Below, piece by piece: positions 1-64,000 of a stretch of 64,000 bases of DNA. This DNA is from Patescibacteria group bacterium (GTDB taxonomy: Bacteria > Patescibacteriota > Patescibacteriia > Buchananbacterales > UBA6539). A model generated the notes under the pieces. The model saw only the letters and a list, made by a program, of their open reading frames with translations. It was not told the DNA's origin and did no database searches. Where the stretch lies: contig JAVEXP010000001.1 of the NCBI GenBank assembly GCA_034003985.1, positions 155,347 through 219,346 on the forward strand. The letters run 5' to 3'. Each line of letters starts with the position of its first letter. Within the stretch, counting starts at the first letter, position 1. Made by a program: the position numbers and the translations under genes.

Positions 1-68
1 TGAGCTGGCGCAGCAGTTGGGATAAATTTAAGCCAGTTAATTATAAATCATAACCGGAGATCAACTAT

Positions 69-194
69 ATGGAATGTGAACAATGCGGTTTGCCGCTAGA
101 CGAGCAGACCAGCTGTCTTTGTGAAATGATAATCTGCTATCATTGTTGCAGTTGTGAATCTGGTTGTCGCTGCGGCTGTCACGAGCGATCATAA
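69..194 (+). CDS. Small cysteine-rich protein (41 aa, 13 Cys): MECEQCGLPLDEQTSCLCEMIICYHCCSCESGCRCGCHERS. Metallothionein-like or metal-binding peptide. Not in the supplied ORF track because it is under 60 aa.
   Basis: I read the ORF manually. ATG at 69 is preceded by GGAG at 54-57. The stop TAA is at 192-194. A hairpin plus T-run follows at about 218-258. Confidence 0.4.
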   Translation: MECEQCGLPLDEQTSCLCEMIICYHCCSCESGCRCGCHERS

Positions 195-217
195 CTTATC
201 AGTTATCGGTGTAAAAA

Positions 218-258
218 CCCAGCCTTTATAAGGCTGGGTTTAGGTTTAGCTTGTCTTT
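218..258 (+). terminator. Intrinsic terminator: hairpin aaacccagcc/ggctgggttt followed by a T-rich run.
   Basis: Perfect inverted repeat cccagcc-tttataa-ggctggg, then tttaggtttagcttgtcttttttt. Confidence 0.45.
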
Positions 259-285
259 TTTTGGCAGAGTGATAAACTACAGATA

Positions 286-848
286 ACTGGTTTTTGACTT
301 TGACTCAAGTAACAAAGCGAGCGACAAGGTGCCTTTGCGAAGGCAGGGAAGAACGGTCGCGATGTGGCGGTCAGAAGTCAGCCAGCTTGTTAGCCGGCAA
401 CAGTGTTTAAGCGCAAGCTTAACCAATCAGAGTCAGCCGGTTGGCATGGCAAAACGAAGCGCAATTAGGAGAACGAACCATGAAAACCTTCGGCGCCGCG
501 GCAAACACCCGCGGCACCCCAACCAACACGGAGGCCGCGATCAATTAGGGCGGCGAGAAGAATATAGGCTAAGTAGACGGCTAGGTCTAACGCTCGCAAG
601 GTGCTGATCCCACCAATGGCCGTTAAGCGTTGCCTGCCCTCCCAGGTGACCAGTTCCTTTTTCATTCCTCAAACGGCGTTAAGCCAGCGCCGCAGTGTTG
701 TCGGCCCGGTGGCTGACAGCAAAGTAGGTAACCACGCAAGGGTATCCCGATTCCGGGTGGGGATACTTAAGACAGTCAGGCCCGGGCTAGCCTGACATTT
801 TTCCCGGCTGAGAGCCTCTTCCCCTCTCAGTTTTTTTTATCCCCAGGA
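286..848 (+). ncRNA. GC-rich structured RNA candidate of about 500-560 nt, unclassified. I considered RNase P RNA and tmRNA but could not confirm either. No credible ORF. It ends in a strong intrinsic terminator.
   Basis: GC is about 55-60% in a roughly 40% GC genome. Only Arg-rich, nonsense-like ORFs overlap it (329-607, 465-665, 601-795). There are many local hairpins, for example gtatccc...gggatac at 742-768 and gtcaggc...gcctgac at 775-797. Putative promoter: TTGTCT at 252-257 and TAAACT at 274-279. Terminator at 808-838. Confidence 0.4.
808..838 (+). terminator. Intrinsic terminator: ctgagag-cctcttccc-ctctcag followed by T8.
   Basis: Perfect 7-bp stem with a 9-nt loop, followed by tttttttt. 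Confidence 0.65.
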
Positions 849-855
849 AGAGGGC

Positions 856-884
856 TTGACACCATAATGGTTTAGTATTAATAT
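856..884 (+). promoter_or_regulatory. Sigma70-like promoter for the TrpR-like gene: TTGACA, 17-nt spacer, TAATAT.
   Basis: ttgaca at 856-861 and taatat at 879-884. An AT-rich leader follows. Confidence 0.5.
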
Positions 885-909
885 ATTAATATAGTAATAC
901 ATTAATACA

Positions 910-1212
910 ATGAAGAAAGTCAACCAAGTCAAAAATCAATGGCAAACCAAGGAAACGGCCCAGTTATTTAAGGCCATCGCCAAAATTGGCACTACTCGTC
1001 AGGCCGAGCAATTTATTCGTGACCTGTGTACCTTGGACGAAATTTATGAAATGGCCAGACGCTGGCAGGCAGTCAGAATGATTAATCAAGGCAAGTCCTA
1101 CCGAGAAATCGCCGCCAAGACCGGGTTAAGCACCACCACCGTTACCCGGGTAGCTTACTGGCTAAATTACGGCGAGGGTGGTTATCGGGCCATTTTGAAG
1201 AAAACAAAATAA
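910..1212 (+). CDS. TrpR-like protein of the YerC/YecD family, a small helix-turn-helix regulator-like protein.
   Basis: 100 aa. The C-terminal block ...SYREIAAKTGLSTTTVTRVAYWLNYGEGGY... is typical of the TrpR/YerC family. A terminator hairpin follows at 1305-1328. Confidence 0.7.
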   Translation: MKKVNQVKNQWQTKETAQLFKAIAKIGTTRQAEQFIRDLCTLDEIYEMARRWQAVRMINQGKSYREIAAKTGLSTTTVTRVAYWLNYGEGGYRAILKKTK

Positions 1213-1304
1213 TTATGAGGAATCAGATACAAACCACTAATCATCAGCAAATTACCTGGCCAGAGTCGAGGTGATTTGACATTGTTTAATTCAATTTCAG
1301 CTTA

Positions 1305-1328
1305 CCCCGCCTCTGGCGGGATTTTTTG
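1305..1328 (+). terminator. Intrinsic terminator: ccccgcc-tctg-gcggg followed by a T-run.
   Basis: Short GC stem followed by attttttg. Confidence 0.5.
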
Positions 1329-1362
1329 TGGATCTTTTCACTAACCAATGGAGGGCACAAAG

Positions 1363-1722
1363 ATGCCAAAGTATCGATTGGATGAAGACTGGCAGGTTGA
1401 TTTCGGCAAGCTTGGCGGATTGGTGGCGGTAGTCATTCAGGATTGGCGGACCAATCAGGTGCTGCAGCAGGCTTTCATGAATCAGGAAAGCTTTCGGCGC
1501 ACTCTTGCTACCGGTGAGATCTGGCTGTGGTCGCGCTCCCGCCAGAAACTGTGGCACAAGGGCGAAACTAGCGGCAATGTTATGCTCGTCAAGGAGCTTT
1601 GGCTGGATTGCGATGGGGATTGCGTTTTGGCCAAAGTTAAAGTGCTGGGCAATGCCTTGGCCTGCCACGAAGATCGTCGGTCTTGTTTCGCCCGGCGCTT
1701 GAAAAAGCAAACCGGCAAGTAA
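1363..1722 (+). CDS. hisI: Phosphoribosyl-AMP cyclohydrolase (HisI), monofunctional.
   Basis: The motifs GLVAVVIQD, WSRSRQKLWHKGETSGN, DCDGD and ACHEDRRSCF match the HisI family. GGAGGG sits 6 nt upstream of the ATG at 1363. The track's longer start is at 1348. Confidence 0.85.
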   Translation: MPKYRLDEDWQVDFGKLGGLVAVVIQDWRTNQVLQQAFMNQESFRRTLATGEIWLWSRSRQKLWHKGETSGNVMLVKELWLDCDGDCVLAKVKVLGNALACHEDRRSCFARRLKKQTGK

Positions 1723-1845
1723 CTGAGTGCTAGTCACAGCAATTCAATCAGAGCGAGAAGGCTATTGGCTTGACCGACCGTTATCGAGCGTGTTAACTTT
1801 GGTTGAGGCAAAACTTCAACGCGGTGATCCGAAGAGGAGTAAGAT

Positions 1846-2751
1846 ATGAAAGCCAAAGGATGCAGATTGATCGTCCCGGACGGTTCCTTAATGGACACCG
1901 TTCATCAGTTGTTGGCCGAAGCGGATTGCCCGGTTAGTTATCCCAGCAGCCGGGCTTATCGCGGAATCATTGCCAATCACCGGCTTTTCCCGCCGCCTTT
2001 TCATCTGGTTCACCGGATGCGGCCGTGGGATTCACCGTTGGTGGTAGCCGCGCAACGAGCGGAATTGGCGTTTACCGGCCAAGATTTGATTATCGAAGCC
2101 GGTTGCCAGGATCAGGTGGTGGTCCTGGACAAGTATCCGCTTTCGCGGGGTGGCGTTGGTTTTACCAAGTTGGTGTTGGCAGTGACAAGCGATTCTTTGA
2201 TCAAATCGGTGACAGATCTTGGTCCACAACACCAGGTGGCTACCGAATACCCCAACTACGCGCGGCAGTGGCTGGCGGCCAAGGGTGTTAATCCTCGGAT
2301 TGTCTGCTGCCACGGTTCGTTGGAAGCTTTTGCCGACTTCGCCGACGCGATTTTTGAGAATACCGAAACCGGGACTTCGTTGAAAGTCGGCGGGTGGCGG
2401 ATCATTGAAGATCTACCCAAGTCGCAGACTTGCTTGATTACTTATTCGCAAGCCTTGGAAGATGAAGTTCAGAATGCCATCATCCAGGAATTTCGGATAT
2501 TGCTGAATGCGGTCATGGCGGCGCGTGGCCGAGTGATGATCAAGTGCAATGTCAGACCCGAGAACTGCACCAGCATCGCGGCGCTGTTGCCTTCGGCCGG
2601 CAGGCCAACAATGTCACCGTTGTTCGGTAATGACGGCTTTGCCTTGGAGGCAGTTGTGATGCAGTCGGATGTCGAAAGCCTGCTGCCGGCGCTGAAAAAA
2701 GCCGGTGCGACGGCGATTGTAGTCCATAATATCGACAAATTCTTGCCCTAA
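1846..2751 (+). CDS. hisG: ATP phosphoribosyltransferase, long form, with the C-terminal regulatory domain (HisG).
   Basis: ADAIFENTETGTSLKVGGWRIIED...TCLI matches the HisG catalytic motif ADAIxDLVSTGxTLxxNGL. The C-terminal ALLPSAGRPTMSPL...KKAGATAIVV matches the HisG regulatory domain. RBS GAGGAG upstream. Confidence 0.85.
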   Translation: MKAKGCRLIVPDGSLMDTVHQLLAEADCPVSYPSSRAYRGIIANHRLFPPPFHLVHRMRPWDSPLVVAAQRAELAFTGQDLIIEAGCQDQVVVLDKYPLSRGGVGFTKLVLAVTSDSLIKSVTDLGPQHQVATEYPNYARQWLAAKGVNPRIVCCHGSLEAFADFADAIFENTETGTSLKVGGWRIIEDLPKSQTCLITYSQALEDEVQNAIIQEFRILLNAVMAARGRVMIKCNVRPENCTSIAALLPSAGRPTMSPLFGNDGFALEAVVMQSDVESLLPALKKAGATAIVVHNIDKFLP

Positions 2752-2794
2752 GCGGCCCAATTGGCCGAGTGGGCAGAAACGACTGTTGGACGAA

Positions 2795-2830
2795 GCGGAA
2801 ACCTACTTTACGGGTTTCCGTCTTTTTTTA
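2795..2830 (+). terminator. Intrinsic terminator: cggaaacc-tactttac-gggtttccg followed by T8.
   Basis: Stem-loop followed by tctttttttat. Confidence 0.6.
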
Positions 2831-2849
2831 TTCATGCTATAAAAAGATC

Positions 2850-3302
2850 ATGAATTTAAATGACAATTACCGTCAAAGTAACCGCATTACTTCAGTTAAA
2901 GTTGAGGTTGGCGACTTGGCAATCAAATTAACGAATGATTTGCTGGCTTGTGTTGAGACTAATCAGCGCCAAAATTTGGGAGAACAATTATTGGATGAGC
3001 TTTGTGACAGCGCCAAAATCGATATTGTCAAACTGAAAATATCAGACACCAGGCAATATCATAAACGGCGCGGCCGCCGGATTGTTTTCAAGCAATATGG
3101 CTATTATCGCGATAAATACATTTATATTCAAAACCGGACCCCGGCGCGCGGCCAGCTAGTGGCGCCGAAAACTTTTTTGGACACCCTGTTGCACGAATGG
3201 TTGCATCATTATGATACTTACGCCTTGGGACTTAATTCCATTCATACTAAGGGATTTTATGAGCGGTTGAAAGATCTTAGAAATCGTTTGAGGGTTACCT
3301 GA
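2850..3302 (+). CDS. Hypothetical protein with an HExxH motif (LLHEWLHHYD), possibly a zinc-dependent hydrolase.
   Basis: The track ORF 2769-3302 overlaps the upstream terminator, so I chose the internal ATG at 2850. AT-rich host-like composition. Confidence 0.45.
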   Translation: MNLNDNYRQSNRITSVKVEVGDLAIKLTNDLLACVETNQRQNLGEQLLDELCDSAKIDIVKLKISDTRQYHKRRGRRIVFKQYGYYRDKYIYIQNRTPARGQLVAPKTFLDTLLHEWLHHYDTYALGLNSIHTKGFYERLKDLRNRLRVT

Positions 3303-3337
3303 TATTATTGCTAAAGATATTTTGAAGATTCAATGTT

Positions 3338-4351
3338 TTGTGGTATAATTCAAAAGAAATGACCACTAAAAAATTGCATCAATTCATTGAATATCTGAGT
3401 CAGCAAAATTTGGTTTGGGCGCCTCAGAAACAAAATGGCCAGCTGGTCATTTCTCAAGTCAGCAGTCCTGAAGAGGTCGTTTTAACTAATGAGTTGCCAT
3501 TGCATTCGTTTAAAAAAATATTGGTGCCGCCGCAGGAGGCGCTTTTTAGTTATCAAAGAGGCAGAATCAAGGCTAAAATCGAGTCTCCTTATCAGGTGAT
3601 TTTTGGTTTAACCGTGCCGGATTTGAAGGCCGTAATATATTTGGATCAGGTGTTTGCCAAGGATCCTTACTATCAGGCTCGGCGCAAAAAAACTTTAATC
3701 GTCGGTCATAGCTTGGTGCCGGAAGCGGATTATCAATTTTTCATTGAGAAGTTCAGTGAAGATATTTTAGAGCATTTGAAGTTTGATATTTTTTTGGCCA
3801 TTCAGAAAAACCAGAAAAATTTTATCGTTTATACCGGATCAGAAGACGGTCAGCGGATTTTGGATGATTTTGGCTATAAATTATACGAACACATTGAATA
3901 TGTCGGGCCAATCAAAGAAGAGGGTCCCGACAAACAGATGCTGGAGATTAGAAGAAAGTTTTATGATAATCCGAAAATTTGGCAGGATTTGGCCCAGCGC
4001 TGTATTGAGTGCGGAAAGTGCAGTCTGGTTTGCCCGACTTGTTTTTGTCATGACCTTATTGACCAACCGGAGCTGGGTGAGGGTAACGGCACCAGAAATC
4101 GGCAATGGACCGCTTGCTTTTACGCTAATTTTTCCGCCGTGGCCGGTCGTGAATTGGGTAGCGGCAAGCCAAAATTTTTAAATAATACGGAGCAACGGAT
4201 CAGGTTTTGGTATGAACATAAATTTGTCAGGTCGGTTGACGAATTTGGCATTTCTGGCTGTGTCGGCTGCGGGCGCTGTACCAAAGTCTGTCCGGTGGCA
4301 ATTGACATTAAAAAAACTTTACAAAAAATTTTAAAAGGTGAAATTGAATGA
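3338..4351 (+). CDS. [NiFe] hydrogenase group-3b-like beta subunit (sulfhydrogenase HydB-like), a 4Fe-4S dicluster protein.
   Basis: Two ferredoxin-type Cys motifs (CIECGKCSLVCPTC and CVGCGRCTKVCP). The stop overlaps the start of the gamma subunit (ATGA). Confidence 0.7.
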   Translation: MWYNSKEMTTKKLHQFIEYLSQQNLVWAPQKQNGQLVISQVSSPEEVVLTNELPLHSFKKILVPPQEALFSYQRGRIKAKIESPYQVIFGLTVPDLKAVIYLDQVFAKDPYYQARRKKTLIVGHSLVPEADYQFFIEKFSEDILEHLKFDIFLAIQKNQKNFIVYTGSEDGQRILDDFGYKLYEHIEYVGPIKEEGPDKQMLEIRRKFYDNPKIWQDLAQRCIECGKCSLVCPTCFCHDLIDQPELGEGNGTRNRQWTACFYANFSAVAGRELGSGKPKFLNNTEQRIRFWYEHKFVRSVDEFGISGCVGCGRCTKVCPVAIDIKKTLQKILKGEIE

Positions 4352-5166
4352 TTAATCCGTATTTGCCAAAATTTGTTAAGATTAAGGCAATCCGAACGGA
4401 AACTTCCGACACCAAACTTTTTACTTTTGAGTTTGTTGACGCCAAAGATCGTCGTAATTTTTCTTTTGAACACGGTCAATTTATGATGGCTGGTATGCTT
4501 GGTGAGGGCGAAGCGGCTTTTGATATTTGTTCTTCCCGGGCGGATTTACAAAAATTTGATTTGGCGATTCGCCAAGTCGGGAGATTGACTGCCAAATTGC
4601 ATCAGCTGAAAGTTGGAGATCAAATAACAATCCGTGGGCCGTTTGGCAATGGTTTGCCTTTAAATAACTTCAAGAATCGCGATTTATTATTAATTGGCGG
4701 CGGCTGTGGTTTTATCACCATGAGATCGTTTGCTTTGGATTACTTAGCGGGAAAATTGGATATTGGTAAATTGAATATATTTTACGGTTGCGCCAATGAA
4801 GAACGCTTGCTTTTTAAAAAAGAATATAAAAGCTGGCGCAAAAAGGTTGGCTTGGAAATCGCCTTGGACAAGCCGTCAAAAAATTGGCAAGGTAAAATGG
4901 GGACAATTACTTCTTTGTTTAATTCCAGCCAAGATTTTACTGGTGCCGTGGCATTGATGGTTGGACCGCCGGCGATGTATAAATTTGTAATTGAAGAATT
5001 GCAGGACAGAGGTATTAAAGACGAGGACATTTATTTGTCATTGGAGCGCCGAATGTATTGTGGTATTGGAGTCTGTCAGCACTGCGCCATTGGCCCGTAC
5101 TATGTTTGTAAAGACGGCCCGGTTTTTTCTTGGGCGCAGCTGCGGGGAATTCCTAACGCCATTTAG
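4348..5166 (+). CDS. Hydrogenase gamma subunit: a PyrK-like FAD/NAD(P)-binding oxidoreductase with a C-terminal 2Fe-2S site (sulfhydrogenase HydG-like).
   Basis: FNR-like fold motifs (GDQITIRGPFG and LIGGGCG). C-terminal C-x4-C-x2-C...C cluster motif (CGIGVCQHCAIGPYYVC). Confidence 0.75.
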   Translation: MINPYLPKFVKIKAIRTETSDTKLFTFEFVDAKDRRNFSFEHGQFMMAGMLGEGEAAFDICSSRADLQKFDLAIRQVGRLTAKLHQLKVGDQITIRGPFGNGLPLNNFKNRDLLLIGGGCGFITMRSFALDYLAGKLDIGKLNIFYGCANEERLLFKKEYKSWRKKVGLEIALDKPSKNWQGKMGTITSLFNSSQDFTGAVALMVGPPAMYKFVIEELQDRGIKDEDIYLSLERRMYCGIGVCQHCAIGPYYVCKDGPVFSWAQLRGIPNAI

Positions 5167-5169
5167 CCT

Positions 5170-5694
5170 ATGGTGGTTTCAACAAAACAGCCAAAAAAAG
5201 TAAAAGTCAACGATAAAATGCAACAGGGATATGTTTATGAATTAACCGTCAGTGAAGGTAAAAATTTTCATCCGGAATTTAAGCCGGAATTAACGCCTAA
5301 ACAGATGCTGGAATTGGGAGTATTTGGCGGTAAATATTTGAATGATTGCCAAAAAGAATTTCCCAAATCCTGGTTTAAGCGGGCGAAACTGGCCAAACGC
5401 CATAAAAATCTTTCCTTGAATTATTTTAAAGTTGATGCGTCATTGCCGTTGAAGGAGTGGCAGCGTAAAGGCTGGATTTATAAAGACGATCCCCGCGGGT
5501 GGTTTCAATGGTATTGCCGTTATTATCTGGGCAGAAGATTGGATCAAGAAGATTGGCGGCAAATTAAGCGCTGGAAAGCAATTAGGCGCCATATCGGGGC
5601 GATTAAGAATAATTGTTTTCAAGGCGATTTAAACTGTCGGGCGCGCCAACGCCAGGCATTATTGCACTGGGCGTATGACAGCCGAAGGATATAA
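5170..5694 (+). CDS. Conserved hypothetical basic protein with Trp/Arg-rich motifs (GWFQWYCRYYLGRR, RWKAIRRH).
   Basis: 174 aa ORF, tightly packed within the hydrogenase gene array. No recognisable catalytic motif. Confidence 0.45.
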   Translation: MVVSTKQPKKVKVNDKMQQGYVYELTVSEGKNFHPEFKPELTPKQMLELGVFGGKYLNDCQKEFPKSWFKRAKLAKRHKNLSLNYFKVDASLPLKEWQRKGWIYKDDPRGWFQWYCRYYLGRRLDQEDWRQIKRWKAIRRHIGAIKNNCFQGDLNCRARQRQALLHWAYDSRRI

Positions 5695-5710
5695 ATAATC
5701 AGTTATAATA

Positions 5711-6103
5711 ATGAAACCTAAAATATTTATCATTTTCATTATGCCGGTTCTGACTTTGATTTTGGTTGGTTGCAGTTTTAAAGAAGAATACGCCATGCAA
5801 TATACAATTGTTGACCAGGCTGGTATTGAAACTAAAGTAACAGCGACTGATGATGGCGTTAAATTGGAGATTCCTTTTGCTGATTTTACTTGCGATATTA
5901 AAAGCGTTAAGGCAACGCTTGAAAGAAATGAAAGTATTTTTTCGGTTTTTATCCAGGGTAATGAAACCCCAGCGCGCTGTAGCCAAAAATTTAGCGCCGA
6001 TATTAATGGGGTTTCGCCCGGAAGTTATCAACTTAAAGTTTATTATCAGCGAGGGGAAGAAAAGCAAGTAGTTTTAGTTGAAGATTTTCAGGTAACCCAA
6101 TAA
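5711..6103 (+). CDS. Hypothetical lipoprotein.
   Basis: N-terminal signal peptide with a lipobox (LILVGC). Confidence 0.5.
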   Translation: MKPKIFIIFIMPVLTLILVGCSFKEEYAMQYTIVDQAGIETKVTATDDGVKLEIPFADFTCDIKSVKATLERNESIFSVFIQGNETPARCSQKFSADINGVSPGSYQLKVYYQRGEEKQVVLVEDFQVTQ

Positions 6104-6108
6104 TTAAA

Positions 6109-6312
6109 ATGTGCCTAACAGTACCGCTAGAGGTCACTAAAATCAAAAAACAGACAGCGGAATTGGCTGACGGGCGAGTGGTTAATATCAGTTTGGTCAA
6201 AGATGTTGAGGTTGGTGATTGGATTTTGGTTAATGCTAATTTGGCACTAGCCAAAATCACCGTGGAGGAAGCCAGGGAAATTATTGAGTTGTTAGCAATT
6301 AATAAAAAGTAA
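6109..6312 (+). CDS. hypC: Hydrogenase maturation factor HypC.
   Basis: 67 aa starting MCL, the essential Cys2. MCLTVPLEV...VGDWILVNANLAL...EEA matches HypC/HupF. Confidence 0.85.
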   Translation: MCLTVPLEVTKIKKQTAELADGRVVNISLVKDVEVGDWILVNANLALAKITVEEAREIIELLAINKK

Positions 6313-6315
6313 AAT

Positions 6316-7269
6316 ATGGAAACTAAAACAAAATTATTTAATTTTGAGCGACAGCGGATTGGAATAATATTGGTATTGCTAACCGCCTTAATTTCCGGTG
6401 TGGCTAATTTTTTCAATAAATTTGCCATGCAAATTCTAGCCAAAGATGCTTTTCAATATACTGCTTTGAAAAATATAGTAGTGGCCTTGGGTTTGAGTTT
6501 AATTTTATTGTCACCATTGGTGTTGGGGAAATTAAAAAAAATTCAAAAAACTGACTGGCTTAAATTAATCATCATTGGCTTAATTGGCGGCGGTATTCCG
6601 TTTTTGTTGTTTTTTAAAGGTTTGAGCTTAACCAGCGCGGTCAGCGCCAGTTTTATACACAAAACTTTATTTGCGTGGGTTGCTATTTTAGCCTGGCCAG
6701 TCTTGAAAGAAAAAATAGGTAAATGGCAATTTCTGGCTTTGGGGCTGCTGCTGATTGGCAATTTTGTTTTTTTGGATTTTCGAAATTTGCGCTGGGGAGT
6801 CGCTGAAACCATGATTTTAATTGCCACCATTATGTGGGCGATGGAAACAATCGTTGTTAAGGCTACTTTAGCAAAAGTCGAACCAATAGTGGCGGCCTGG
6901 GCGAGGATGTTTTTTGGCTCAATATTTTTGTTTGGCTGGTTAATAATGACTAATAATGTCACTGGTTTGGGACAATTAGATTTAGACCAATTAAGCTGGC
7001 TAGTGGGCGTAGGCGTGTTGCTGTTGGGCTATGTAATTACTTGGTATAGCGGATTGAAACGATTATCCGCCCTAACAACCGCCAGTATTTTGGTTTTAGC
7101 TTCACCAATTACGACATTATTAAATTCAATATTTGTCAGTCATAGTTTCTCGGTTCAGAATTTTTGGAGCAGTTTGATTATTGCCTTCGGTGTTTCGGGC
7201 TTCATCGCCTTGGGATTTAAACAAAACAGTAAATCCAGTTATCAAATATTAGAAAACAGTAAATCGTGA
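6316..7269 (+). CDS. EamA/DMT-superfamily membrane transporter.
   Basis: About 10 predicted transmembrane helices, with the two-repeat architecture typical of EamA. Confidence 0.6.
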   Translation: METKTKLFNFERQRIGIILVLLTALISGVANFFNKFAMQILAKDAFQYTALKNIVVALGLSLILLSPLVLGKLKKIQKTDWLKLIIIGLIGGGIPFLLFFKGLSLTSAVSASFIHKTLFAWVAILAWPVLKEKIGKWQFLALGLLLIGNFVFLDFRNLRWGVAETMILIATIMWAMETIVVKATLAKVEPIVAAWARMFFGSIFLFGWLIMTNNVTGLGQLDLDQLSWLVGVGVLLLGYVITWYSGLKRLSALTTASILVLASPITTLLNSIFVSHSFSVQNFWSSLIIAFGVSGFIALGFKQNSKSSYQILENSKS

Positions 7270-8081
7270 TGTTGTTAAACGACCAAAAATTGGCCGGGGC
7301 TTTACTGGCGGCGCGCTATGCCTTTATGCCTAACCGTTTGAAATATTGCGGACCGGATAATAATGCGGAATTGTTTGGTTATCTTGCCAATCAAACCGCT
7401 GATTTGGGTTTAAAGGAGATGCTCCAGGAATTTCAAACAATGTTTCCTTATTTAAAGTTGATTGCCGAAGCAAACCATATTGCCGATCCGTTCAACTATC
7501 GGGTGGTTGAAGCTTATTGGATTGGTAATGAACTATTGGAGAAAGTCAGGATACAAAATTTTTATCGTTATCTGGTTGATGGCCAGCAATTGAAGAAAAA
7601 GTTTAAATTAAGTTCTTTGGAAAAACTTTTTGGCAAGATTCCTTTGGGCGCCAAGCCGCACCACAGTTTTCATGTTTTAAATGTTCCGAAGCGAACCGGG
7701 TATTATCCGGTTGAACATACTTTAAAAACCATCAACGCTTGTATTATCACGCCGGCGAAAATCAAGCGCTTGAATCTTGAATCATGTTCGGCTGAAGGTC
7801 GGGTTAAAAAAATCAAAGAGCAACGAAATATTTTAAAAAAGATTATGGTTGAAGCCAGGCCATTGGTGGCTGAGGGTAATTGCCTGGAAATCGGTGAAGC
7901 CAGGGAGCAGGAAGTTTTTGTTGAATCTAATAATCAGGCCTTGGTCAAAGGATTTAAAGTTGGTGATGATGTGGCATTGCATTGGAATTGGGTTTGTGAT
8001 TTATTGACGCCAAGCCAGGCTGAAAATTTGTTGAAGTGGAATAATTATAATTTAAAATTGCTTAATCTGAATTATGCCTAA
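7266..8081 (+). CDS. Hypothetical protein, translationally coupled to the hydrogenase small subunit. Possibly a hydrogenase accessory protein.
   Basis: 271 aa. Its start overlaps the EamA stop and its end overlaps the start of the delta subunit. No known motif recognised. Confidence 0.45.
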   Translation: MMLLNDQKLAGALLAARYAFMPNRLKYCGPDNNAELFGYLANQTADLGLKEMLQEFQTMFPYLKLIAEANHIADPFNYRVVEAYWIGNELLEKVRIQNFYRYLVDGQQLKKKFKLSSLEKLFGKIPLGAKPHHSFHVLNVPKRTGYYPVEHTLKTINACIITPAKIKRLNLESCSAEGRVKKIKEQRNILKKIMVEARPLVAEGNCLEIGEAREQEVFVESNNQALVKGFKVGDDVALHWNWVCDLLTPSQAENLLKWNNYNLKLLNLNYA

Positions 8082-8898
8082 AAAAATTAAAAAACCAAGG
8101 GTGGCAATCGTTGGACTAACTTGTTGCGAGGGCTGTGAATTTGCAATTTTGGATTTGGGTCAGAGGTTTTTGGAACTAGCCAAGTATGTTGAGTTAGTCG
8201 AGTTTCGGATGATAAAAGACGATCCGCCAAAACCCGGACCTTATGATATCTGTTTTGTGGAAGGTTCGGCAGTAACCAAAAAGAATGTTGAGATTTTAAA
8301 AGAACTGCGGCGGGTGTCCAAAAAGCTGATTGTGCTAGGCAACTGCGCTCATACCGGCGGAATTCATCGGATGAAGAATTGGATTGGACGAGTTCAGGCA
8401 TTGGGGCAAGTATACGATAAGCCCCGGGGGATTGATAACCCGCCGATTGTACCGATTGCCGAAATTGTCAAAGTGGATTTTACCATCCCGGCTTGTCCGA
8501 TTAACGCCGAAGAATTTTTAATTATTGTAAAACAATTGTTGGCCGGGCGGGAGCCGTTTATTCCCCAAAATCCGGTTTGTTTCGAATGCCAGATTAACGG
8601 TTATGAGTGTTTGCTACAGCAAGGCGAACTTTGTTGCGGGCCAATCACTTTGGGCGGTTGCCAGGCTGTTTGTCTAAAAAGCAAACAGCCATGCTGGGGT
8701 TGCCGAGGTTTACTTGAAGAACCGGATGTTGATAAGTTTGTCCGTAATTGTTTTTTGACCGGTCATACTATTGAAGAAATTGAAAAAGTTTTGGAGGTGT
8801 TTGGAGTTAAAGATGACTGGATTGATCAGGCCAAACAAGAATGGCAATCGCTTCAAAAATCAAAAGCCTTAATTAAGATAACCGGGAAAGAAAAATAA
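8074..8898 (+). CDS. [NiFe] hydrogenase small subunit, group 3 (delta/HydD-like).
   Basis: Proximal FeS cluster motif VAIVGLTCCEGCEF, GNCAHTGG, and further C-rich motifs (CFECQINGYEC and CQAVC). Confidence 0.8.
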   Translation: MPKKIKKPRVAIVGLTCCEGCEFAILDLGQRFLELAKYVELVEFRMIKDDPPKPGPYDICFVEGSAVTKKNVEILKELRRVSKKLIVLGNCAHTGGIHRMKNWIGRVQALGQVYDKPRGIDNPPIVPIAEIVKVDFTIPACPINAEEFLIIVKQLLAGREPFIPQNPVCFECQINGYECLLQQGELCCGPITLGGCQAVCLKSKQPCWGCRGLLEEPDVDKFVRNCFLTGHTIEEIEKVLEVFGVKDDWIDQAKQEWQSLQKSKALIKITGKEK

Positions 8899-8906
8899 TT
8901 AAAATT

Positions 8907-9512
8907 ATGGAATGTTCAAAATGTAAAACTAACAATGATGACAAATCAAAGGTTTGTCGAATTTGCGGCGCTGATTTAACGATGGTGCCGGCCGCAATTG
9001 ATTTCAAGGCGGGAACTGAATCAAGCTCGGCGGCGGAAAAATATCAAGGGTTGGGTGGGTGGCTAATACTGGTAGGGCTAGGTTTAATTAGCGCTCCCTT
9101 AATGATTGGCTGGGCGTTGTATCAAGATTTTTTGCCGCTGGTTTTGGAGTCCCAGGTCTGGCAGACTTTAACTTCTCCAGGCAGTCTGATTTACAGTTCA
9201 TTGTGGAAGCCAACCTTAATGATGGAGGTAACCGTTAACATTATATTTTTTGTTTGGACAATATATCTGCTGGTTTTATTTTTCAGGAAGAGCGCGCATT
9301 TTCCTAAATTGTATATAATTTTTTTGGCGGTGAATTTATTATTTTTAATGATCGACGATATTTTACTTTTTCAGATCAGGCGCCAATTACCGATTCTGGG
9401 TCAGACTGTTGGTGAACAAAAATTTAGTTCATTGTCAGCGGTTTTGCCAACAGTTATTTGGATACCATATATGCTGAATTCCAAAAGAGTAAAACAAACT
9501 TTTGTTAATTAA
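8907..9512 (+). CDS. Membrane protein with an N-terminal zinc ribbon (CxxC...CxxC) and 4-5 transmembrane helices.
   Basis: MECSKCKT...VCRICGADL followed by hydrophobic helices. Sits between the small and large hydrogenase subunit genes. Confidence 0.5.
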   Translation: MECSKCKTNNDDKSKVCRICGADLTMVPAAIDFKAGTESSSAAEKYQGLGGWLILVGLGLISAPLMIGWALYQDFLPLVLESQVWQTLTSPGSLIYSSLWKPTLMMEVTVNIIFFVWTIYLLVLFFRKSAHFPKLYIIFLAVNLLFLMIDDILLFQIRRQLPILGQTVGEQKFSSLSAVLPTVIWIPYMLNSKRVKQTFVN

Positions 9513-9518
9513 TCATTT

Positions 9519-10805
9519 ATGAAGATTAGAATTGATCATTTGGAAAAAATGGAGGGTCACCTGGATTTTGTCGGTGATATTTTGGCTGGTGATGTCGCCA
9601 GCGCCAAAATAAAAACGACGGAAGGAATCAGGCTGATTGAGAGTATTTTGGTTGGTCGCAAGTATTATGACGCGCCAATCATTACGGCCAGAATTTGCGG
9701 GATTTGTCCGGTAGTTCATTCGTTGAATATGATTAAGACAGTCGAAAATGCTTTTGGCATTAAACCCAGTCAGCAGACTATTAAATTGCGGAAACTAATG
9801 GAGTTCTCACAAGTCATTCACAGCCATGCTTTACATTTGTATTTTTTGTCGATGCCGGATTTTTACGGAGTAAGAGATGATATTGACTTTATTAAACAAA
9901 ATCCAACCCAAGCCTCGGCGGCTATCAAAATTAGGGAATTTGCTTTGAAGATTTTGGAGGTGGTAGCCGGTCGGGCTATTCATCCAATTGCCTGCGAAGT
10001 CGGCGGCTTTAAAATTTTGCCCAGCCAGGAACAACTTAAAGAATTGTTGAGGAATTATAAAGAAACAATGGTCGCCGCGATGGAATTGATGGTGTTTGCG
10101 GCCAGATTGCCCTTGCCGCAGTTTGAACGCCGGATGGAATTTGCCAGTTTGTATTCGCCGGATGAATATGCGATTTATGACGGTCGGATAAAATTTTTGG
10201 ACGGCAAGATTATTAAGTCCAGTAAGTATGCCAAGGTAATAGATGAATATCAGTTGCTGGCGTCAGCAGCGAAGCGAGCAAATTATCAAGGTAAAAGCTA
10301 TATGGTAGGCGCTTTGGCCAGGCTTAATATTAATCATGACAAGTTGAGCAAGGAAGCCGCCGCCGTAGTTAAAGATTTAAAATTGAAATTTCCAATTTAT
10401 AATACCTTTGCCAATGTTTTGGCCCAAGCGATTGAAGTGGTTCATGCTATGCAAGAAGCCGGTAATTTACTGAGTGATTTGGCCGATAATTTGAAATTTG
10501 AAGAAAGCCGGGGCCATAATTTGGCTTTGATTGCCGATGCTAATCCCCAAGGTAGAGTTACGGTTGGCTATTCGGTAATGGAAGCGCCGCGGGGGATATT
10601 ATATGACATGGTAGAAATAAATGCCGATGGAGTAATCACTAGATCGGATATCATTACGCCGACCGTTCAATATTTAAACAATATCGAGGAGGATTTAAAA
10701 GTTTATTTGCCCAATTTAAAACAGTTATCAGACCGCCAGCGGCGGCAAAAAATTAAGACTTTAATCAGAGCTTACGATCCTTGTATTTCGTGTGCTACCC
10801 ATTAA
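9519..10805 (+). CDS. [NiFe] hydrogenase large subunit, group 3. It ends exactly at the DPCxxCxxH motif with no C-terminal extension.
   Basis: N-terminal L1 motif RICGICPVVHSL. C-terminal L2 motif DPCISCATH is immediately followed by a stop. Confidence 0.9.
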   Translation: MKIRIDHLEKMEGHLDFVGDILAGDVASAKIKTTEGIRLIESILVGRKYYDAPIITARICGICPVVHSLNMIKTVENAFGIKPSQQTIKLRKLMEFSQVIHSHALHLYFLSMPDFYGVRDDIDFIKQNPTQASAAIKIREFALKILEVVAGRAIHPIACEVGGFKILPSQEQLKELLRNYKETMVAAMELMVFAARLPLPQFERRMEFASLYSPDEYAIYDGRIKFLDGKIIKSSKYAKVIDEYQLLASAAKRANYQGKSYMVGALARLNINHDKLSKEAAAVVKDLKLKFPIYNTFANVLAQAIEVVHAMQEAGNLLSDLADNLKFEESRGHNLALIADANPQGRVTVGYSVMEAPRGILYDMVEINADGVITRSDIITPTVQYLNNIEEDLKVYLPNLKQLSDRQRRQKIKTLIRAYDPCISCATH

Positions 10806-12039: not shown

Positions 12040-12040
12040 T

Positions 12041-14585: not shown

Positions 14586-14595
14586 CAATAAAATT

Positions 14596-52836: not shown

Positions 52837-52878
52837 ATGCATATCTTGCAGTTGCCAGGCCTGGTCGACCTGTGCTAA
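52837..52878 (+). CDS. 13-codon upstream ORF (MHILQLPGLVDLC) with a near-perfect Shine-Dalgarno site.
   Basis: GGGAGGG lies 6 nt upstream of the ATG at 52837. The stop TAA is at 52876-52878. Confidence 0.3.
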   Translation: MHILQLPGLVDLC

Positions 52879-52897
52879 ATGCCACTCCTATTAATTC

Positions 52898-53074
52898 ATG
52901 AGCTTTAGGCTTATGTACCACGCAATCAAAACCGGAGTGACATTAGCCGTCGGCTTAGCCGTACTGCAGATGTTCCTCCCTGATGTGGGATCCAAGTTAG
53001 TTGAGTTAATCACTACGGTGATTGACATTATGCTGGTTACCATCAACCAAGCGTCGACTAACTTACCCTCATAG
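52898..53074 (+). CDS. Small hydrophobic peptide (58 aa, two predicted TM segments): MSFRLMYHAIKTGVTLAVGLAVLQMFLPDVGSKLVELITTVIDIMLVTINQASTNLPS.
   Basis: I read the ORF manually; it is under 60 aa. It lies 20 nt after the 13-codon uORF. It is followed by the terminator hairpin ggccctagg...cctgggcc plus a T-rich run at about 53075-53115. Confidence 0.35.
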   Translation: MSFRLMYHAIKTGVTLAVGLAVLQMFLPDVGSKLVELITTVIDIMLVTINQASTNLPS

Positions 53075-53132
53075 ACGACATAAGGCCCTAGGATACTCTC
53101 CTGGGCCTTTTCCTTTGTCTTTGAATATTAGT

Positions 53133-57362: not shown

Positions 57363-57418
57363 AAATAATAAATTAGAGGTGAAAACCTCTGTTTAATTTT
57401 ACTATTTTTAATTAACTT

Positions 57419-57447
57419 TGACAAATAGGATGGAATCGACTAAAATA
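57419..57447 (+). promoter_or_regulatory. Consensus-like sigma70 promoter: TTGACA, 17-nt spacer, TAAAAT.
   Basis: ttgaca-aataggatggaatcgac-taaaat upstream of an AAGGAGG RBS. Confidence 0.5.
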
Positions 57448-57469
57448 AGATTTTTAAGGAGGTTTTGCC

Positions 57470-57799
57470 ATGACGATTGAACATTGGGAAATCGGCCCAA
57501 CGGCCGAAGAGGCTTGGCAGCGAGCGCTGTCTAACGGCAAAGATTGCACCTTCGTTGGTTGGACGGCCTTTGTGGCAATTATCAAGTGGTCTCAGGAGGG
57601 TCACGGTGAAGTGGTGATGGTGGAAAACGATCGGCCGGTTGAAGGCATGACTGCGTCTCAGGTAATTGAGTGGTGTCGCGATGGTCAAGTATTGCGTTTC
57701 CGGACCATTACCAAAATGGATAAACCATTTGATCATCCGTTGTGCCAACTGCTGAAAGTCGGCAAACCGGCTTTCAAGGGTGTTGCTCTCAGCGATTAG
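57470..57799 (+). CDS. GC-rich orphan hypothetical protein (109 aa).
   Basis: Strong RBS AAGGAGG. About 53% GC. The terminator-like ggggcaaccc plus T8 follows. Its 3' end overlaps the convergent tagA-like gene by about 10 nt. Confidence 0.45.
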   Translation: MTIEHWEIGPTAEEAWQRALSNGKDCTFVGWTAFVAIIKWSQEGHGEVVMVENDRPVEGMTASQVIEWCRDGQVLRFRTITKMDKPFDHPLCQLLKVGKPAFKGVALSD

Positions 57800-58547
57800 G
57801 GGCAACCCTTTTTTTTATTTGATCAATCAAGACCAACCAAGGGAAGATTACAGTAGCAGTAAAGATTCTTTTGTATCTTTGAGGTTGAAGAATTAAACGG
57901 AATAGCCATTCTAATCCGAGATTCCTTAAAATTTTTGGTGCTCGCAAAACATTGCCGGAGATGTAATCAAAGGCACCCCCAATCCCAACGGCGACTTTAA
58001 TATTTGGTAATTGATCAAGGTGATAGAAGATCCATTTTTCTTGTTTGATTTGGCCCAGGGCGACAAATAAAATGGCTGCCTGGGAATCATTAATGCGTTC
58101 AATGAGCTCATGGTCAATTTCTTTGGGGTCGGTAATATCTCCCCCGCTTTCGGCGCCGGCAACAATTAGATTGGGTAAATTTTCTTTTAACACTGTTGCA
58201 GTTTGAGCTGCAACAGTTTCGGCGGCGCCTAATAAATAAACTGAACAATTTTGTTGTTCAGCTAATTCACTGATTAACCAGACGAGGTCAACGCCGGTTA
58301 CTCGTTGCAACCGCTGGCCTAAGAGTTTGGCGATTTTAATCAATCCGACACCGTCGGCCACGGCGATATCGGCATAATTTAGGATTTCTTTAAATTCATG
58401 GTCTTGATTTGTGGCGACAATAAATTCCGGATTGGGAGTCACTAAATAATGCTGGTCATTTGAGTGCAAAAAATGGTTCACCTGTTCTAAAACTTCTTGC
58501 GGTGATAAATTATCGATTTGAACTCCCAATATATCAACCTTGTCCAT
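57789..58547 (-). CDS. WecB/TagA/CpsF-family glycosyltransferase (N-acetylmannosaminyltransferase-like).
   Basis: ILGVQIDNLS...VTPNPEFIV...ADGVGLI is the family signature. Confidence 0.8.
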   Translation of the reverse strand: MDKVDILGVQIDNLSPQEVLEQVNHFLHSNDQHYLVTPNPEFIVATNQDHEFKEILNYADIAVADGVGLIKIAKLLGQRLQRVTGVDLVWLISELAEQQNCSVYLLGAAETVAAQTATVLKENLPNLIVAGAESGGDITDPKEIDHELIERINDSQAAILFVALGQIKQEKWIFYHLDQLPNIKVAVGIGGAFDYISGNVLRAPKILRNLGLEWLFRLILQPQRYKRIFTATVIFPWLVLIDQIKKRVAPNR

Positions 58548-62650: not shown

Positions 62651-62681
62651 AGTATTGATATTATACCAAATTTAATCAGAT

Positions 62682-62715
62682 TAAAAAAAATCGGCCGAAA
62701 GCGAACTTCCGGCCT
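62682..62715 (-). terminator. Intrinsic terminator of the small-membrane-protein operon: ggccggaagttcgctttcggccg followed by T8 on the minus strand.
   Basis: On the plus strand it reads aaaaaaaatcggccgaaagcgaacttccggcc. Confidence 0.55.
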
Positions 62716-62746
62716 AAGATTGCGGGATAGTATAGTGGGTCCGAGA

Positions 62747-62941
62747 TTAGTTCTCGGGATCTATCTCGATTATGGCTTGAATCAAGAGTGGCAATCCCCA
62801 AAACAGGAGGATTAGCCTTTCTTTCAGGGTCAGGCCGGCACTCATGGCCAGAGAGATATTGGCGCCGAAGTAAACCACTGCTGCAAAACCTACAACAATG
62901 GCTACCATGATCAGTAACGAGTAGACGACTATCATTGTCAT
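62747..62941 (-). CDS. Tiny membrane protein (64 aa, 2 TM), gene 4 of a GC-rich four-gene operon.
   Basis: AAGGAGG RBS. A 4-nt ATGA overlap with the upstream gene. Confidence 0.5.
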   Translation of the reverse strand: MTMIVVYSLLIMVAIVVGFAAVVYFGANISLAMSAGLTLKERLILLFWGLPLLIQAIIEIDPEN

Positions 62942-63174
62942 GGTTTTTGGTCCTCCTTTTGTTCGTTCGGATCAGGTTTTGCTGGGGTTAGAATCAAAGC
63001 CGCCAATTCAATCAGCACCAGGCTGATTTGGGAGAAAGGCAGCGAAACAATGTCGACCAACTGATCTATTGCCGACTTTCGTCGACAATGATTTCGCCGA
63101 CTTTCGAGGTGGATTCCCACCCCAATCCAGACCAGCCCGGCGAGCGCCAAGGCAGCTAACTTTGCTTCGTTCAT
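62938..63174 (-). CDS. Tiny membrane protein (78 aa, 2 TM), gene 3. Weak resemblance to MnhF/MrpF-like subunits.
   Basis: AAGGAG RBS. A 3-nt gap to the upstream gene. Confidence 0.5.
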   Translation of the reverse strand: MNEAKLAALALAGLVWIGVGIHLESRRNHCRRKSAIDQLVDIVSLPFSQISLVLIELAALILTPAKPDPNEQKEDQKP

Positions 63175-63177
63175 CGG

Positions 63178-63369
63178 TTACTCCTTGGGTTCAGTTTTGC
63201 TGAGCAGAATGGCCAGATACAACAGCAGGTAGTTAACCGGCTCCTCGTGAATTTGCCTCAGGTAAGCCCGCCAGCCGGTTTGACTGCCAAAGTGGCCGGT
63301 TAAGACAACGCCAGTTGCCAGATATAACCCGTAGATTATCCCGGCGCCAATCAGAATGTCAGTAGCCAT
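63178..63369 (-). CDS. Tiny membrane protein (63 aa, 2 TM), gene 2.
   Basis: AAGGAG RBS. Confidence 0.5.
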   Translation of the reverse strand: MATDILIGAGIIYGLYLATGVVLTGHFGSQTGWRAYLRQIHEEPVNYLLLYLAILLSKTEPKE

Positions 63370-63383
63370 GGTGGTCTTCTCCT

Positions 63384-63503
63384 TTAGGCGATATCGCCTT
63401 CACAAGGGATGCCGATGAACCATCGAAACAGCCGATACACTGAGACTGAGATTACAAATCCCAGTACGAGCGTTATTATCACGCCAGAAAGCAGTCGTTG
63501 CAT
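63384..63503 (-). CDS. Tiny membrane protein (39 aa, 1 TM), gene 1. Not in the track.
   Basis: I read the ORF manually: MQRLLSGVIITLVLGFVISVSVYRLFRWFIGIPCEGDIA. AAGGAGGGG RBS. Confidence 0.4.
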   Translation of the reverse strand: MQRLLSGVIITLVLGFVISVSVYRLFRWFIGIPCEGDIA

Positions 63504-63717
63504 GGGTTACCCCTCCTTGTCAAGTTGTTAACATTCCCGTAATTAATTAATTTTAATGGCAAGTTGCTATTTAAGTCAAGTTATCCCCAAAACCGATAGG
63601 TTTGACAGAAATATTAATCGGTTATATAATTAATTCTTCCCAATGGAATATTCCCCTAGCTTTTGGCAGGGGTTTTCGTTTTTTCTTAAAACTAACATAA
63701 TAAAATAAAAACCAACT

Positions 63718-63855
63718 ATGCCTAAAGTTTTTGATTCCCCAATCGAAGAATTAAAGTTTTATTTAACCATGCAGATTCAGGCTTATCATGAAGAGGATTT
63801 CAAACTTTACGACAGGTTGGAAAGCAAAATTTTGGAAATTGAAAAAAAATTATGA
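63718..63855 (+). CDS. Small hypothetical protein (45 aa) upstream of def.
   Basis: I read the ORF manually. No strong SD. Confidence 0.25.
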   Translation: MPKVFDSPIEELKFYLTMQIQAYHEEDFKLYDRLESKILEIEKKL

Positions 63856-63890
63856 AAAATTGTTGATTTGTGTTATAATAATTTAAAATT

Positions 63891-64000
63891 ATGACAAAAG
63901 TTTATCCCCTAACGCTTTATCCCGACAAGATCTTGCGTCAATCCAATCGGACAATAAAATTAGAGGAGCTGCCGACCAAGGAGTTTGCGCAGCTACTTTT
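63891..64000 (+). CDS. def: Peptide deformylase, N-terminal fragment. It continues beyond the window.
   Basis: MTKVYPLTLYPDKILRQSNRTIKLEEL...EFAQL matches the PDF N-terminus. Confidence 0.65.
   Translation, partial: MTKVYPLTLYPDKILRQSNRTIKLEELPTKEFAQLL

Follow-up and report, generated by a model that had tools for sequence, protein, structure and literature searches.

GC-rich patches in a 64-kb Patescibacteria chromosome segment: strain-variable intergenic DNA, native genes, and a predicted leader RNA

We analyzed a 64,000-nucleotide stretch of the chromosome of a Patescibacteria group bacterium (assembly GCA_034003985.1, contig JAVEXP010000001.1, positions 155,347 to 219,346), hereafter the window, in which patches of GC-rich DNA interrupt a more AT-rich backbone. 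An earlier note, made from the sequence alone, had listed nine such patches of 50–58% GC, numbered here 1 to 9, and read them either as repeated acquisitions from a higher-GC donor pool or as a family of structured elements and small-protein genes under compositional constraints of their own. We find the patches to be a mixed bag of strain-variable accessory DNA, native genes, and one leader RNA, largely known in kind, that share a manner of evolving but not ancestry. The slots that hold the variable patches are polymorphic, their contents are mutually unrelated, recombinase genes are absent, and GC enrichment of the variable DNA is unusually frequent in this subclade.

By gene content, the window is a housekeeping segment of a Patescibacteria (candidate phyla radiation, CPR) chromosome near Ca. 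Buchananbacteria, and its MreB is 88–93% identical to homologues in Ca. Buchananbacteria/Patescibacteria metagenome-assembled genomes (MAGs). An exact match to its hisG protein is likewise annotated as belonging to a Patescibacteria MAG. Pfam/NCBIfam annotation, which covered all window open reading frames (ORFs) of at least 80 amino acids, identified a group-3b-like NiFe hydrogenase cluster, pgk, eno, and two copies of the cofactor-independent phosphoglycerate mutase gene (iPGM), together with mreB (two copies), mreC, PBP2, holB, frr, rseP, proS, greA, lysS, serS, alr, ddl, ftsQ, gltX, wecG, and an AmmeMemoRadiSam-like set. The two iPGM genes are full-length tandem paralogues (16661–19829), a pair kept in all close relatives. 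We compared the window slot by slot with about 100 related loci (L-numbered), in which gene order is strongly kept; the sister genomes are distant, with about 60–80% protein identity to the window. Conserved and variable segments, the latter at least 250 bp long, were marked by all-against-all ORF comparison in all fetched loci. Three-base periodicity, expressed as a z-score, served as the coding test and cleanly marks pgk, frr, greA, FadL, hisG, the patch-8 cluster, and ORF90.

Patches 2, 7, and 8 contain small genes equipped with promoter, Shine-Dalgarno (SD), and terminator signals. Patch 2 is a plus-strand cassette (19883–20273) in which ORF90 (19925–20197) has a GGAGGG SD site and a terminator at 20236–20273; its promoter, TTGACA-17-TATTTT, lies at 19849–19877. 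ORF90 shows coding periodicity (z 3.5) and a GC content at third codon positions (GC3) of 0.56. The iPGM2-GT2a spacer measures 516 bp in the window versus 94–206 bp in five relatives (L001, L002, L004, L005, and L006), and no ORF90 homologue was found in any fetched locus, Pfam, PHROGs, or viral contigs. An exact 11-nt T-rich repeat, TATTTTTTTAG, brackets the patch (19872–19882 and 20263–20273), and both copies are terminator T-tails.

Patch 7 (57363–57820, plus strand) runs antisense to the WecG-gltX array and contains ORF109 (57470–57799), with a TTGACA promoter at about 57419, an AAGGAGG SD site, and a terminator that overlaps the 3′ end of WecG. The gltX and WecG genes overlap or lie no more than 78 bp apart in six sisters versus 426 bp in the window. 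An exhaustive phmmer search of 1.84 billion representative proteins retrieved a single relative of ORF109 (P0002, 44% identity), whose gene lies in the corresponding gltX|WecG slot of L102, a Patescibacteria contig of 32.6% GC. By gltX identity (61% vs 64–66%), L102 is no closer to the window than are the sisters lacking ORF109. The GC3 of ORF109 is 0.55, and that of the L102 copy is 0.41 in a host of about 0.20. Structure predictions for ORF109 and ORF90 were of low confidence (pLDDT 59.6 and 45.5, respectively). We also observed that the last eight codons of WecG (KKRVAPNR, window 57789–57815) are encoded by the complement of the ORF109 terminator; insertion of the cassette seems to have remodelled the WecG C-terminus.

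Four small hydrophobic ORFs of 39, 63, 78, and 64 amino acids make up patch 8 (62690–63560, minus strand; terminator at about 62690–62720). Each is preceded by a GGAGG-type SD site, the cluster has strong coding periodicity (z 9.7), and GC3 ranges from 0.50 to 0.62. In L102, the corresponding slot, between the unk97 and orf45 homologues, holds two small transmembrane ORFs of no detectable similarity. A concatenated small-ORF query against a 5.8-billion-protein index returned no matches, but the same query also missed the known patch-6 homologues, which makes this negative uninformative.

Patch 4 belongs to a 5.3-kb island (38062–43349) with four genes recognized by Pfam: a FadL/Toluene_X-family gene on the minus strand (38139–39371) and, on the plus strand, a Methyltransf_20-like gene (MT20; 39505–40530), a 7TM-GAF histidine kinase (40603–42807), and a response regulator (42812–43219). 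The flanking PBP2 and greA genes are 183–520 bp apart in L086, L095, and L090 versus 6.3 kb in the window. Composition varies within the island, FadL being GC-rich and the kinase AT-rich (GC3: FadL 0.60, MT20 0.65, kinase 0.37). FadL is 50% identical to a FadL at another locus in L104 and L105, where GC3 is also 0.60; it shares 34% identity with an L002 fragment whose GC is 54%, in a genome of 35.5% GC. This fragment occupies the slot after mreB1, where patch 3 lies in the window, and is followed by homologues of the window kinase (63% identity) and response regulator (64%). The presence of FadL, kinase, and regulator homologues at the mreB1 slot in L002 argues that FadL-X-kinase-regulator is a module that moved between slots. 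In that stretch of L002 (11116–15822), FadL is reduced to its C-terminal third, an 80-amino-acid minus-strand ORF lies beside it, and the kinase is apparently split into ORFs of 110 and 516 amino acids; judging from these remnants, the stretch looks like a decaying copy of the module. A large protein search returned no close relatives of FadL or MT20, but it also missed the 50%-identical FadL of L104 and L105, so negatives from it are weak.

FadL-type outer-membrane genes are unexpected in this phylum, and the source is a MAG, which raises the possibility that the inserts arose artificially during assembly or binning, as chimeric joins with reads of GC-richer organisms. We give this explanation very little credence. 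The expected syntenic genes stand on either side of every insert within one contig, homologues of the inserts come from independently assembled data (ORF110 in a Logan assembly, at the corresponding slot, and FadL in two separate NCBI MAGs), and the inserts carry host-style promoters, SD sites, and terminators.

Patch 6 (52723–53115, plus strand) begins with a TTGACA promoter at 52723, ends with a terminator at 53083–53115, and is convergent with sdpI/arsR(sdpR)-like genes. Between the two signals lie a predicted leader RNA of about 150 nt (52766–52912), modeled with RNAalifold and a covariance model, and a small membrane-protein gene (probable start 52913, stop 53074) whose product of about 53 amino acids carries a C-terminal VDQAxTNLP motif. 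Orthologues occupy the same position in six sisters, and the leader precedes the gene in 7/7 orthologous loci (L088 13712–13868, L089 6318–6465, L090 14647–14792, L091 11489–11634, L095 14593–14730, and L102 4062–4216, besides the window). In 1.48 Mb of related DNA, the covariance model scored 105–136 bits at the seven orthologous sites only, the other matches being palindromic echoes on the opposite strand. The predicted fold combines a long P1/P2 stem with two hairpins, one variable and the other bearing a conserved GGUCA loop. In the alignment, 89.5% of cells are paired versus 36–52% when partners are slid by 1–3 columns, 16 of the 27 pairs have changes on both sides versus 3–6 in the slid controls, and the covariation score was reached by 0 of 500 shuffles; because these statistics come from only seven sequences in an alignment fitted to the model, we regard the evidence as good but not final. 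No Rfam family matches the leader in the window or in the sister loci. On these comparative grounds, the patch-6 leader is a previously undescribed conserved leader RNA, predicted from sequence, and the one concrete new item of our analysis.

The patch-6 gene lacks an SD site; the only SD-like run, GGGAGGG, forms the 3′ strand of P1, and a run of CCUCC comes after the final hairpin. This arrangement suggests translational control of the ORF by alternative pairing. The unit could be a translational switch or a peptide-immunity pair. A type I toxin-antitoxin system was considered for patches 6 and 8, both of which encode small hydrophobic peptides, in patch 6 behind a long structured leader. We identified neither an antisense promoter nor an antisense RNA, and strict synteny over deep divergence is atypical of such systems. 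The patch-6 ORF maintains a GC3 of 0.46–0.61 in hosts of 33–55% GC, and part of the extra GC of the patch belongs to the conserved base-paired leader RNA. The alternative of structured elements and small-protein genes that follow their own constraint is directly upheld by patch 6; a common family is not, as blastn and tblastx revealed no DNA or protein similarity among the patches. Immediately upstream of the unit and downstream of an Mrr-like gene, the stretch at 52200–52720 is very AT-rich (21–30% GC), the compositional opposite of the patches, and contains a perfect hairpin, tagtgtcg...cgacacta, at about 52631–52664.

Three long spacers without ORFs (195–909, 24828–25479, and 49182–49432) have 47–50% GC versus 19–43% for all other spacers in the window. 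The first holds patch 1a, a block of about 550 nt with 54% GC (260–845, plus strand) situated between an ORF of 41 amino acids (69–194) and the yerC promoter (856–884). Its only expression signal is a terminator, a hairpin plus U-run at about 805–838; there is no three-base periodicity (z 0.1), and its folding is not significant against shuffles (z −1.1 for the plus and −0.9 for the minus strand). In sisters, the slot is a short AT-rich spacer (275 bp in L103 and 164 bp in L105) or, in L106 (8209–8478), holds an unrelated GC-rich gene of 89 amino acids with its own SD site, promoter, and terminator. The second spacer, patch 3, is a 650-bp variable region after mreB1 with features on both strands. 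On the plus strand, patch 3a (24840–25095) has a 58-codon ORF with an SD site and terminators, and on the minus strand, patch 3b (about 25100–25452) has a promoter matching 11 of 12 consensus positions (TTGACA-17-GATAAT, 25452–25424) and a hairpin plus U8 terminator near 25100–25140. Neither part shows coding periodicity (z −0.5 and 0.3, respectively), and the patch-3 folds are not significant versus shuffles. The spacer after mreB1 is 320–1300 bp long in every sister and its content is different in each.

The third spacer, patch 5 (49182–49432, minus strand), is an ORF-less insert of 49% GC between alr and ddl. A promoter matching 9 of 12 consensus positions (TTGACT-17-TAAGAT) lies on the minus strand at 49418–49390, and a long hairpin plus U-run on the same strand (49251–49182) abuts the alr stop codon. 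The insert lacks periodicity (z 0.3) and an Rfam match. The alr-ddl spacer is 19–56 bp in five sisters and 290–914 bp in eight others, where the inserts are mutually unrelated and frequently GC-rich and ORF-less; two of them (L083 and L095) likewise have no three-base periodicity. A conserved RNA at the alr-ddl slot was rejected, given that the sister inserts have no similarity, Rfam match, or common promoter/terminator layout; the L089 insert folds with a z of about −2.5 on both strands, which is not diagnostic. Decayed pseudogenes were also rejected as the source of the ORF-less blocks, as a six-frame Pfam scan of the window blocks plus four sister inserts detected no Pfam remnant and three-base periodicity was absent.

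The blocks of about 550 nt (1a), 320 nt (3b), and 200 nt (5) could be genes for novel structured or antisense noncoding RNAs, with base-pairing accounting for their GC content. Selecting long intergenic regions of high GC is a proven way to enrich for structured RNAs in AT-rich genomes (Stav et al. 2019, PMC6429828; DIMPL, PMC8723152). Patch 6 is exactly such a case and shows that the principle holds in this genome; patches 1a, 3b, and 5 would be selected by the same criterion, as candidates without homologues. The blocks are the longest and GC-richest spacers of the window, are free of coding periodicity and Pfam remnants, and end in a terminator at patch 1a or combine a minus-strand promoter with an intrinsic terminator at patches 5 and 3b. 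Patch 5, moreover, beats shuffles in folding on its promoter strand only (z −3.1 vs −1.3). We nonetheless consider this explanation improbable, if the strongest of the alternatives. No block is kept at its slot in any sister, the fold z-scores of patches 1a and 3 are not significant, no Rfam similarity appears even at E-values of 5–10, and the sister alr-ddl inserts have no consistent promoter/terminator layout. We class the ORF-less blocks as candidate accessory RNAs or old debris. Of the near-consensus promoters, SD sites, and hairpin terminators described for most patches, we see such signals at patches 2, 6 (where the SD-like run belongs to P1), 7, and 8 and, on the minus strand, at 3b and 5; patch 1a has only a terminator.

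Other patches are native. Patch 1b comprises, on the plus strand, a yerC/TrpR-like gene (910–1212), hisI (1348–1722), and long-form hisG (1846–2751), identified by Pfam/NCBIfam and with GC3 values of 0.55, 0.65, and 0.63, respectively. The order gap-yerC-(hisI)-hisG-hydB is kept in L103–L107, and the nearest relatives of hisG (66% to 44% identity) belong without exception to Patescibacteria. The yerC-hisI-hisG genes are native to the clade. The GC3 excess of hisG recurs in relatives (0.58 vs about 0.40 for its neighbours in L103; 0.54 vs about 0.37 in L106). Its divergence is incongruent with that of the flanking genes, at 46% versus 69–75% identity for L106.

Several side features surround this cluster. 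Long-form hisG, with or without hisI, adjoins the TrpR-like gene, and the rest of the histidine pathway is not nearby (window 1348–2751, L103, L105, and L106). In L106, a 263-amino-acid protein with a faint SPASM match stands in place of hisI; in L105, yerC is followed directly by hisG. Between the yerC promoter and start codon (875–908) is an AT-rich palindrome, GTATTAATATATTAATA / TAGTAATACATTAATAC, which is kept in L103 (about 9107–9137) and L106 (about 8561–8599) and is probably the operator of the TrpR-like YerC. The 41-amino-acid ORF at 69–194, downstream of gap, is Cys-rich (MECEQCGLPLDEQTSCLCEMIICYHCCSCESGCRCGCHERS), has its own terminator, and has a counterpart of 54% identity in L106 (7785–7913). 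The whole hydrogenase cluster (3338–10805, about 9 kb), whose GC is native, is missing from the hisG-pgk interval of L103 (10915–12930), where a GC-rich PALP-family gene (GC3 0.60) is found instead.

The GC content of patch 9 has a different origin. This plus-strand gene (12298–13305) encodes a 335-amino-acid protein with a Gly/Lys/Ala/Pro/Ser-rich tail and no Pfam match, and its extra GC is confined to the first and second codon positions (GC1 0.58, GC2 0.44, GC3 0.41), as expected of an amino acid composition effect. L106 lacks the gene, its unk86 homologue running directly into pgk, and lacks CNNM and DUF2569 as well.

How unusual is the composition of these patches? Overall, the window has 42.1% GC with a standard deviation of 6.1% among 200-bp windows, so that a patch of 50% lies only about 1.3 standard deviations above the mean at that scale. 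All nine listed intervals do reach 50–60% GC locally. The list is incomplete, however, as equally GC-rich 200-bp stretches occur in conserved genes outside it, namely iPGM1 (17.1–17.5 kb, maximum 0.575), mreB1 (23.95–24.4 kb, to 0.57), mreB2 (33.0–33.3 kb, to 0.565), and PBP2 (36.75–37.1 kb, to 0.555), and it is heterogeneous. For reference, we used 44 core genes that are syntenic in sisters (GC 0.414 ± 0.030, GC3 0.423 ± 0.036). Against this set, with sampling noise included, GC3 z-scores were +5.1 for MT20, +4.5 for hisG, +4.1 for FadL, +3.9 for hisI, +0.9 to +2.8 for the small ORFs, and −0.3 (native) for patch 9; hisI, hisG, FadL, MT20, ORF90, and ORF109 span +2 to +5. By far the most extreme compositional outlier among all loci compared lies outside the window, in L102 (18968–19528), where an ORF of 186 amino acids has 57% GC and a GC3 of 0.82 in a host genome of 32.6% GC. 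One counter-explanation foreseen for the patches was that they are simply highly expressed native genes. The highly expressed native genes eno, pgk, frr, and greA have ordinary GC3 (0.39–0.44), which argues against expression level as the cause and disposes of that case.

Five of the six variable segments in the window exceed core GC by more than 0.03, versus 16.7% of variable segments across the clade (n = 144; binomial P = 6.6e-4), and the nearest alr-anchored relatives show the same tendency (4/5 in L089 and 3/5 in L102). GC enrichment of variable DNA is thus a real trait that is specific to this subclade. That accessory DNA is GC-rich throughout the clade was rejected, the clade-wide mean difference being slightly negative.

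A possible explanation is that nothing in the window is foreign, in which case GC would be intrinsic and gene-specific (amino acids, RNA structure, or local GC-biased repair or conversion) and presence/absence would reflect losses in sisters. Much of the evidence above fits it: patch 9 is purely an amino acid effect, patch 6 and hisG are native and syntenic with raised GC3 in all hosts examined, a distant relative has the ORF109 homologue at the matching slot, FadL-family genes have the same GC in three clade genomes, and no donor was found. We rate it as unlikely, a little below the noncoding RNA explanation, because patches 2, 3, 5, and 1a have no homologue in any of the roughly 100 related loci, sister slots are filled with unrelated sequences instead of being simply empty, the FadL module stands at different chromosomal positions between genomes, and hisG diverges incongruently with its neighbours.

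The observation that no patch carries an integrase or transposase is borne out by annotation of the whole window, in which neither these nor any other recombinase was found by Pfam/NCBIfam. A repeat search of each patch detected no terminal inverted repeats. Flanking direct repeats, also reported as missing, are indeed absent at patches 1, 3, 4, 5, 7, and 8, the only candidate being the 11-mer around patch 2. A single repeat family resembling miniature inverted-repeat transposable elements was rejected, as blastn (word size 7) and tblastx comparisons among the patches and against the window gave chance matches only. A prophage origin was likewise rejected, there being no megablast match to phage records for window positions 1–20000 and no PHROGs match for ten small ORFs; ORF90, ORF109, and MT20 have no relatives in IMG/VR. 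Known structural RNAs were rejected as the cause of the patches. ARAGORN found no tRNA or tmRNA gene in the 64-kb window. With the Rfam 15 covariance models, the whole window gave no match at the gathering threshold or with E ≤ 5, targeted scans gave trivial matches only, patches 1a and 5 gave none up to E ≤ 10, and nine sister loci were likewise negative. In L104, ORFs for a GIY-YIG protein (16075–16362) and an IS200/IS605-type Y1 transposase (18029–18454) lie in or beside the hydrogenase cluster of this close relative, so the clade does have mobile elements, although none is in the window.

These features allow comparison with known systems. With classical genomic islands, the window shares atypical composition and presence/absence polymorphism (patches 2, 3, 4, 5, 7, and 1a), the latter being absent from the his cluster and patch 6. 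The window units differ from integrase-borne islands in having no integrase or transposase, no tRNA gene, and no flanking repeats save one doubtful 11-mer. They differ from integron gene cassettes in lacking an IntI integrase and a shared imperfect inverted repeat at their ends and in carrying their own promoters. Closer counterparts are the islands of groundwater Patescibacteria, where hundreds of islands have been described, about 83% of detected transfers are between Patescibacteria, and competence and pili are proposed as the transfer route (PMC12455944). Phylum, habitat type, atypical-composition accessory DNA, mostly within-Patescibacteria exchange, and proposed competence/pili uptake instead of dedicated integrases are all alike. 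Most window units are far smaller than the IslandViewer-type islands of that study, at 0.25–0.65 kb with one gene or none; in addition, the window units sit in recurrent intergenic slots and several of the GC-rich genes are native.

We favor the explanation that the variable patches are flexible-genome DNA exchanged among Patescibacteria, combined with gene-specific GC maintenance, and assign it a probability of roughly 60%. According to this explanation, conserved syntenic housekeeping genes are separated by a limited number of fast-turnover intergenic slots. In different relatives, these slots hold unrelated self-contained units, each with a promoter, a small ORF or an ORF-less RNA-like body, and a terminator, and one slot in the window holds the 5.3-kb FadL-methyltransferase-kinase-regulator island. 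Entry may occur by uptake of DNA from other Patescibacteria of differing GC. Integration may then follow through recombination within the conserved neighbours, or illegitimately, at the tails of terminators. A higher-GC pool is available within the clade, since relatives such as L091 have 54.5% GC and the same gene order as the window. A second component is not of foreign origin: yerC-hisI-hisG and the patch-6 gene are native, and patch 9 reflects amino acid composition.

Something also keeps hisG, FadL, ORF109, and the patch-6 gene GC-rich across hosts. These genes are GC3-rich in hosts of very different GC, so high GC alone is no proof of recent import. Candidate causes are recurrent replacement by copies from relatives of higher GC, GC-biased gene conversion at loci that recombine often, and selection on the individual genes, among which the data do not discriminate. 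GC-biased gene conversion has been described in bacteria and predicts higher GC3 in frequently recombining genes despite mutational AT bias (Lassalle et al. 2015, PMC4450053). It would fit the persistent GC3 excess of these four genes, which we offer as a hypothesis only.

Several observations weigh against exchange among Patescibacteria as the source. Taken over the wider clade, variable DNA averages no higher in GC than core (mean difference −0.01 to −0.05). FadL has 54–55% GC in hosts of 35.5–43.5% GC at only 34–50% identity, and hisG and the vertically inherited patch-6 gene behave alike; such GC3 persistence is not predicted by simple import followed by amelioration. Synonymous sites are expected to have equilibrated at these divergences, and a single old import therefore cannot explain the GC3 pattern. 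No donor was identified for any patch, and none can be named outside Patescibacteria. Because the sisters are distant, gains cannot be separated from losses or dated. Integration without a dedicated mobile-element enzyme is an inference, and the 11-nt TATTTTTTTAG repeat at patch 2 may be coincidence, as it consists of two terminator T-tails. The idea of repeated acquisition is retained in part. In its favour, sister comparison reveals presence/absence polymorphism at patches 2, 3, 4, 5, 7, and 1a, their GC3 looks foreign, they lack recombinase genes, and higher-GC relatives exist in the clade. The idea does not extend to the native his cluster and patch 6 or to the compositional patch 9, no donor outside Patescibacteria could be named, and simple recent acquisition leaves the persistence of high GC3 across hosts unaccounted for.

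A more specific proposal for this subclade is recombinase-independent cassette traffic into the intergenic slots, in which promoter-payload-terminator modules, coding or RNA-only, would be captured at intrinsic-terminator T-tails, the duplication of TATTTTTTTAG at ORF90 would be a footprint of capture, and the modules would be GC-rich through biased gene conversion or selection for RNA structure. We consider this very unlikely, though less so than an artefact of assembly; it falls well short of the all-native explanation. If true, ultra-small bacteria would have a new way of moving small genes.

With their tiny genomes, Patescibacteria are thought to gain novelty chiefly through the exchange of genes. 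If exchange among Patescibacteria is indeed the source, the window shows at base-pair resolution where it lands, namely in a few intergenic slots between syntenic housekeeping genes, and what arrives is often one small gene or an RNA-like block, without mobility genes. The window also provides a caution for composition-based island finding, as the vertically inherited hisG and patch-6 gene are GC3-rich in every host, making atypical GC an unreliable mark of recent transfer. Finally, the predicted patch-6 leader RNA offers a concrete, testable new motif in a phylum whose regulatory RNAs are almost unexplored.

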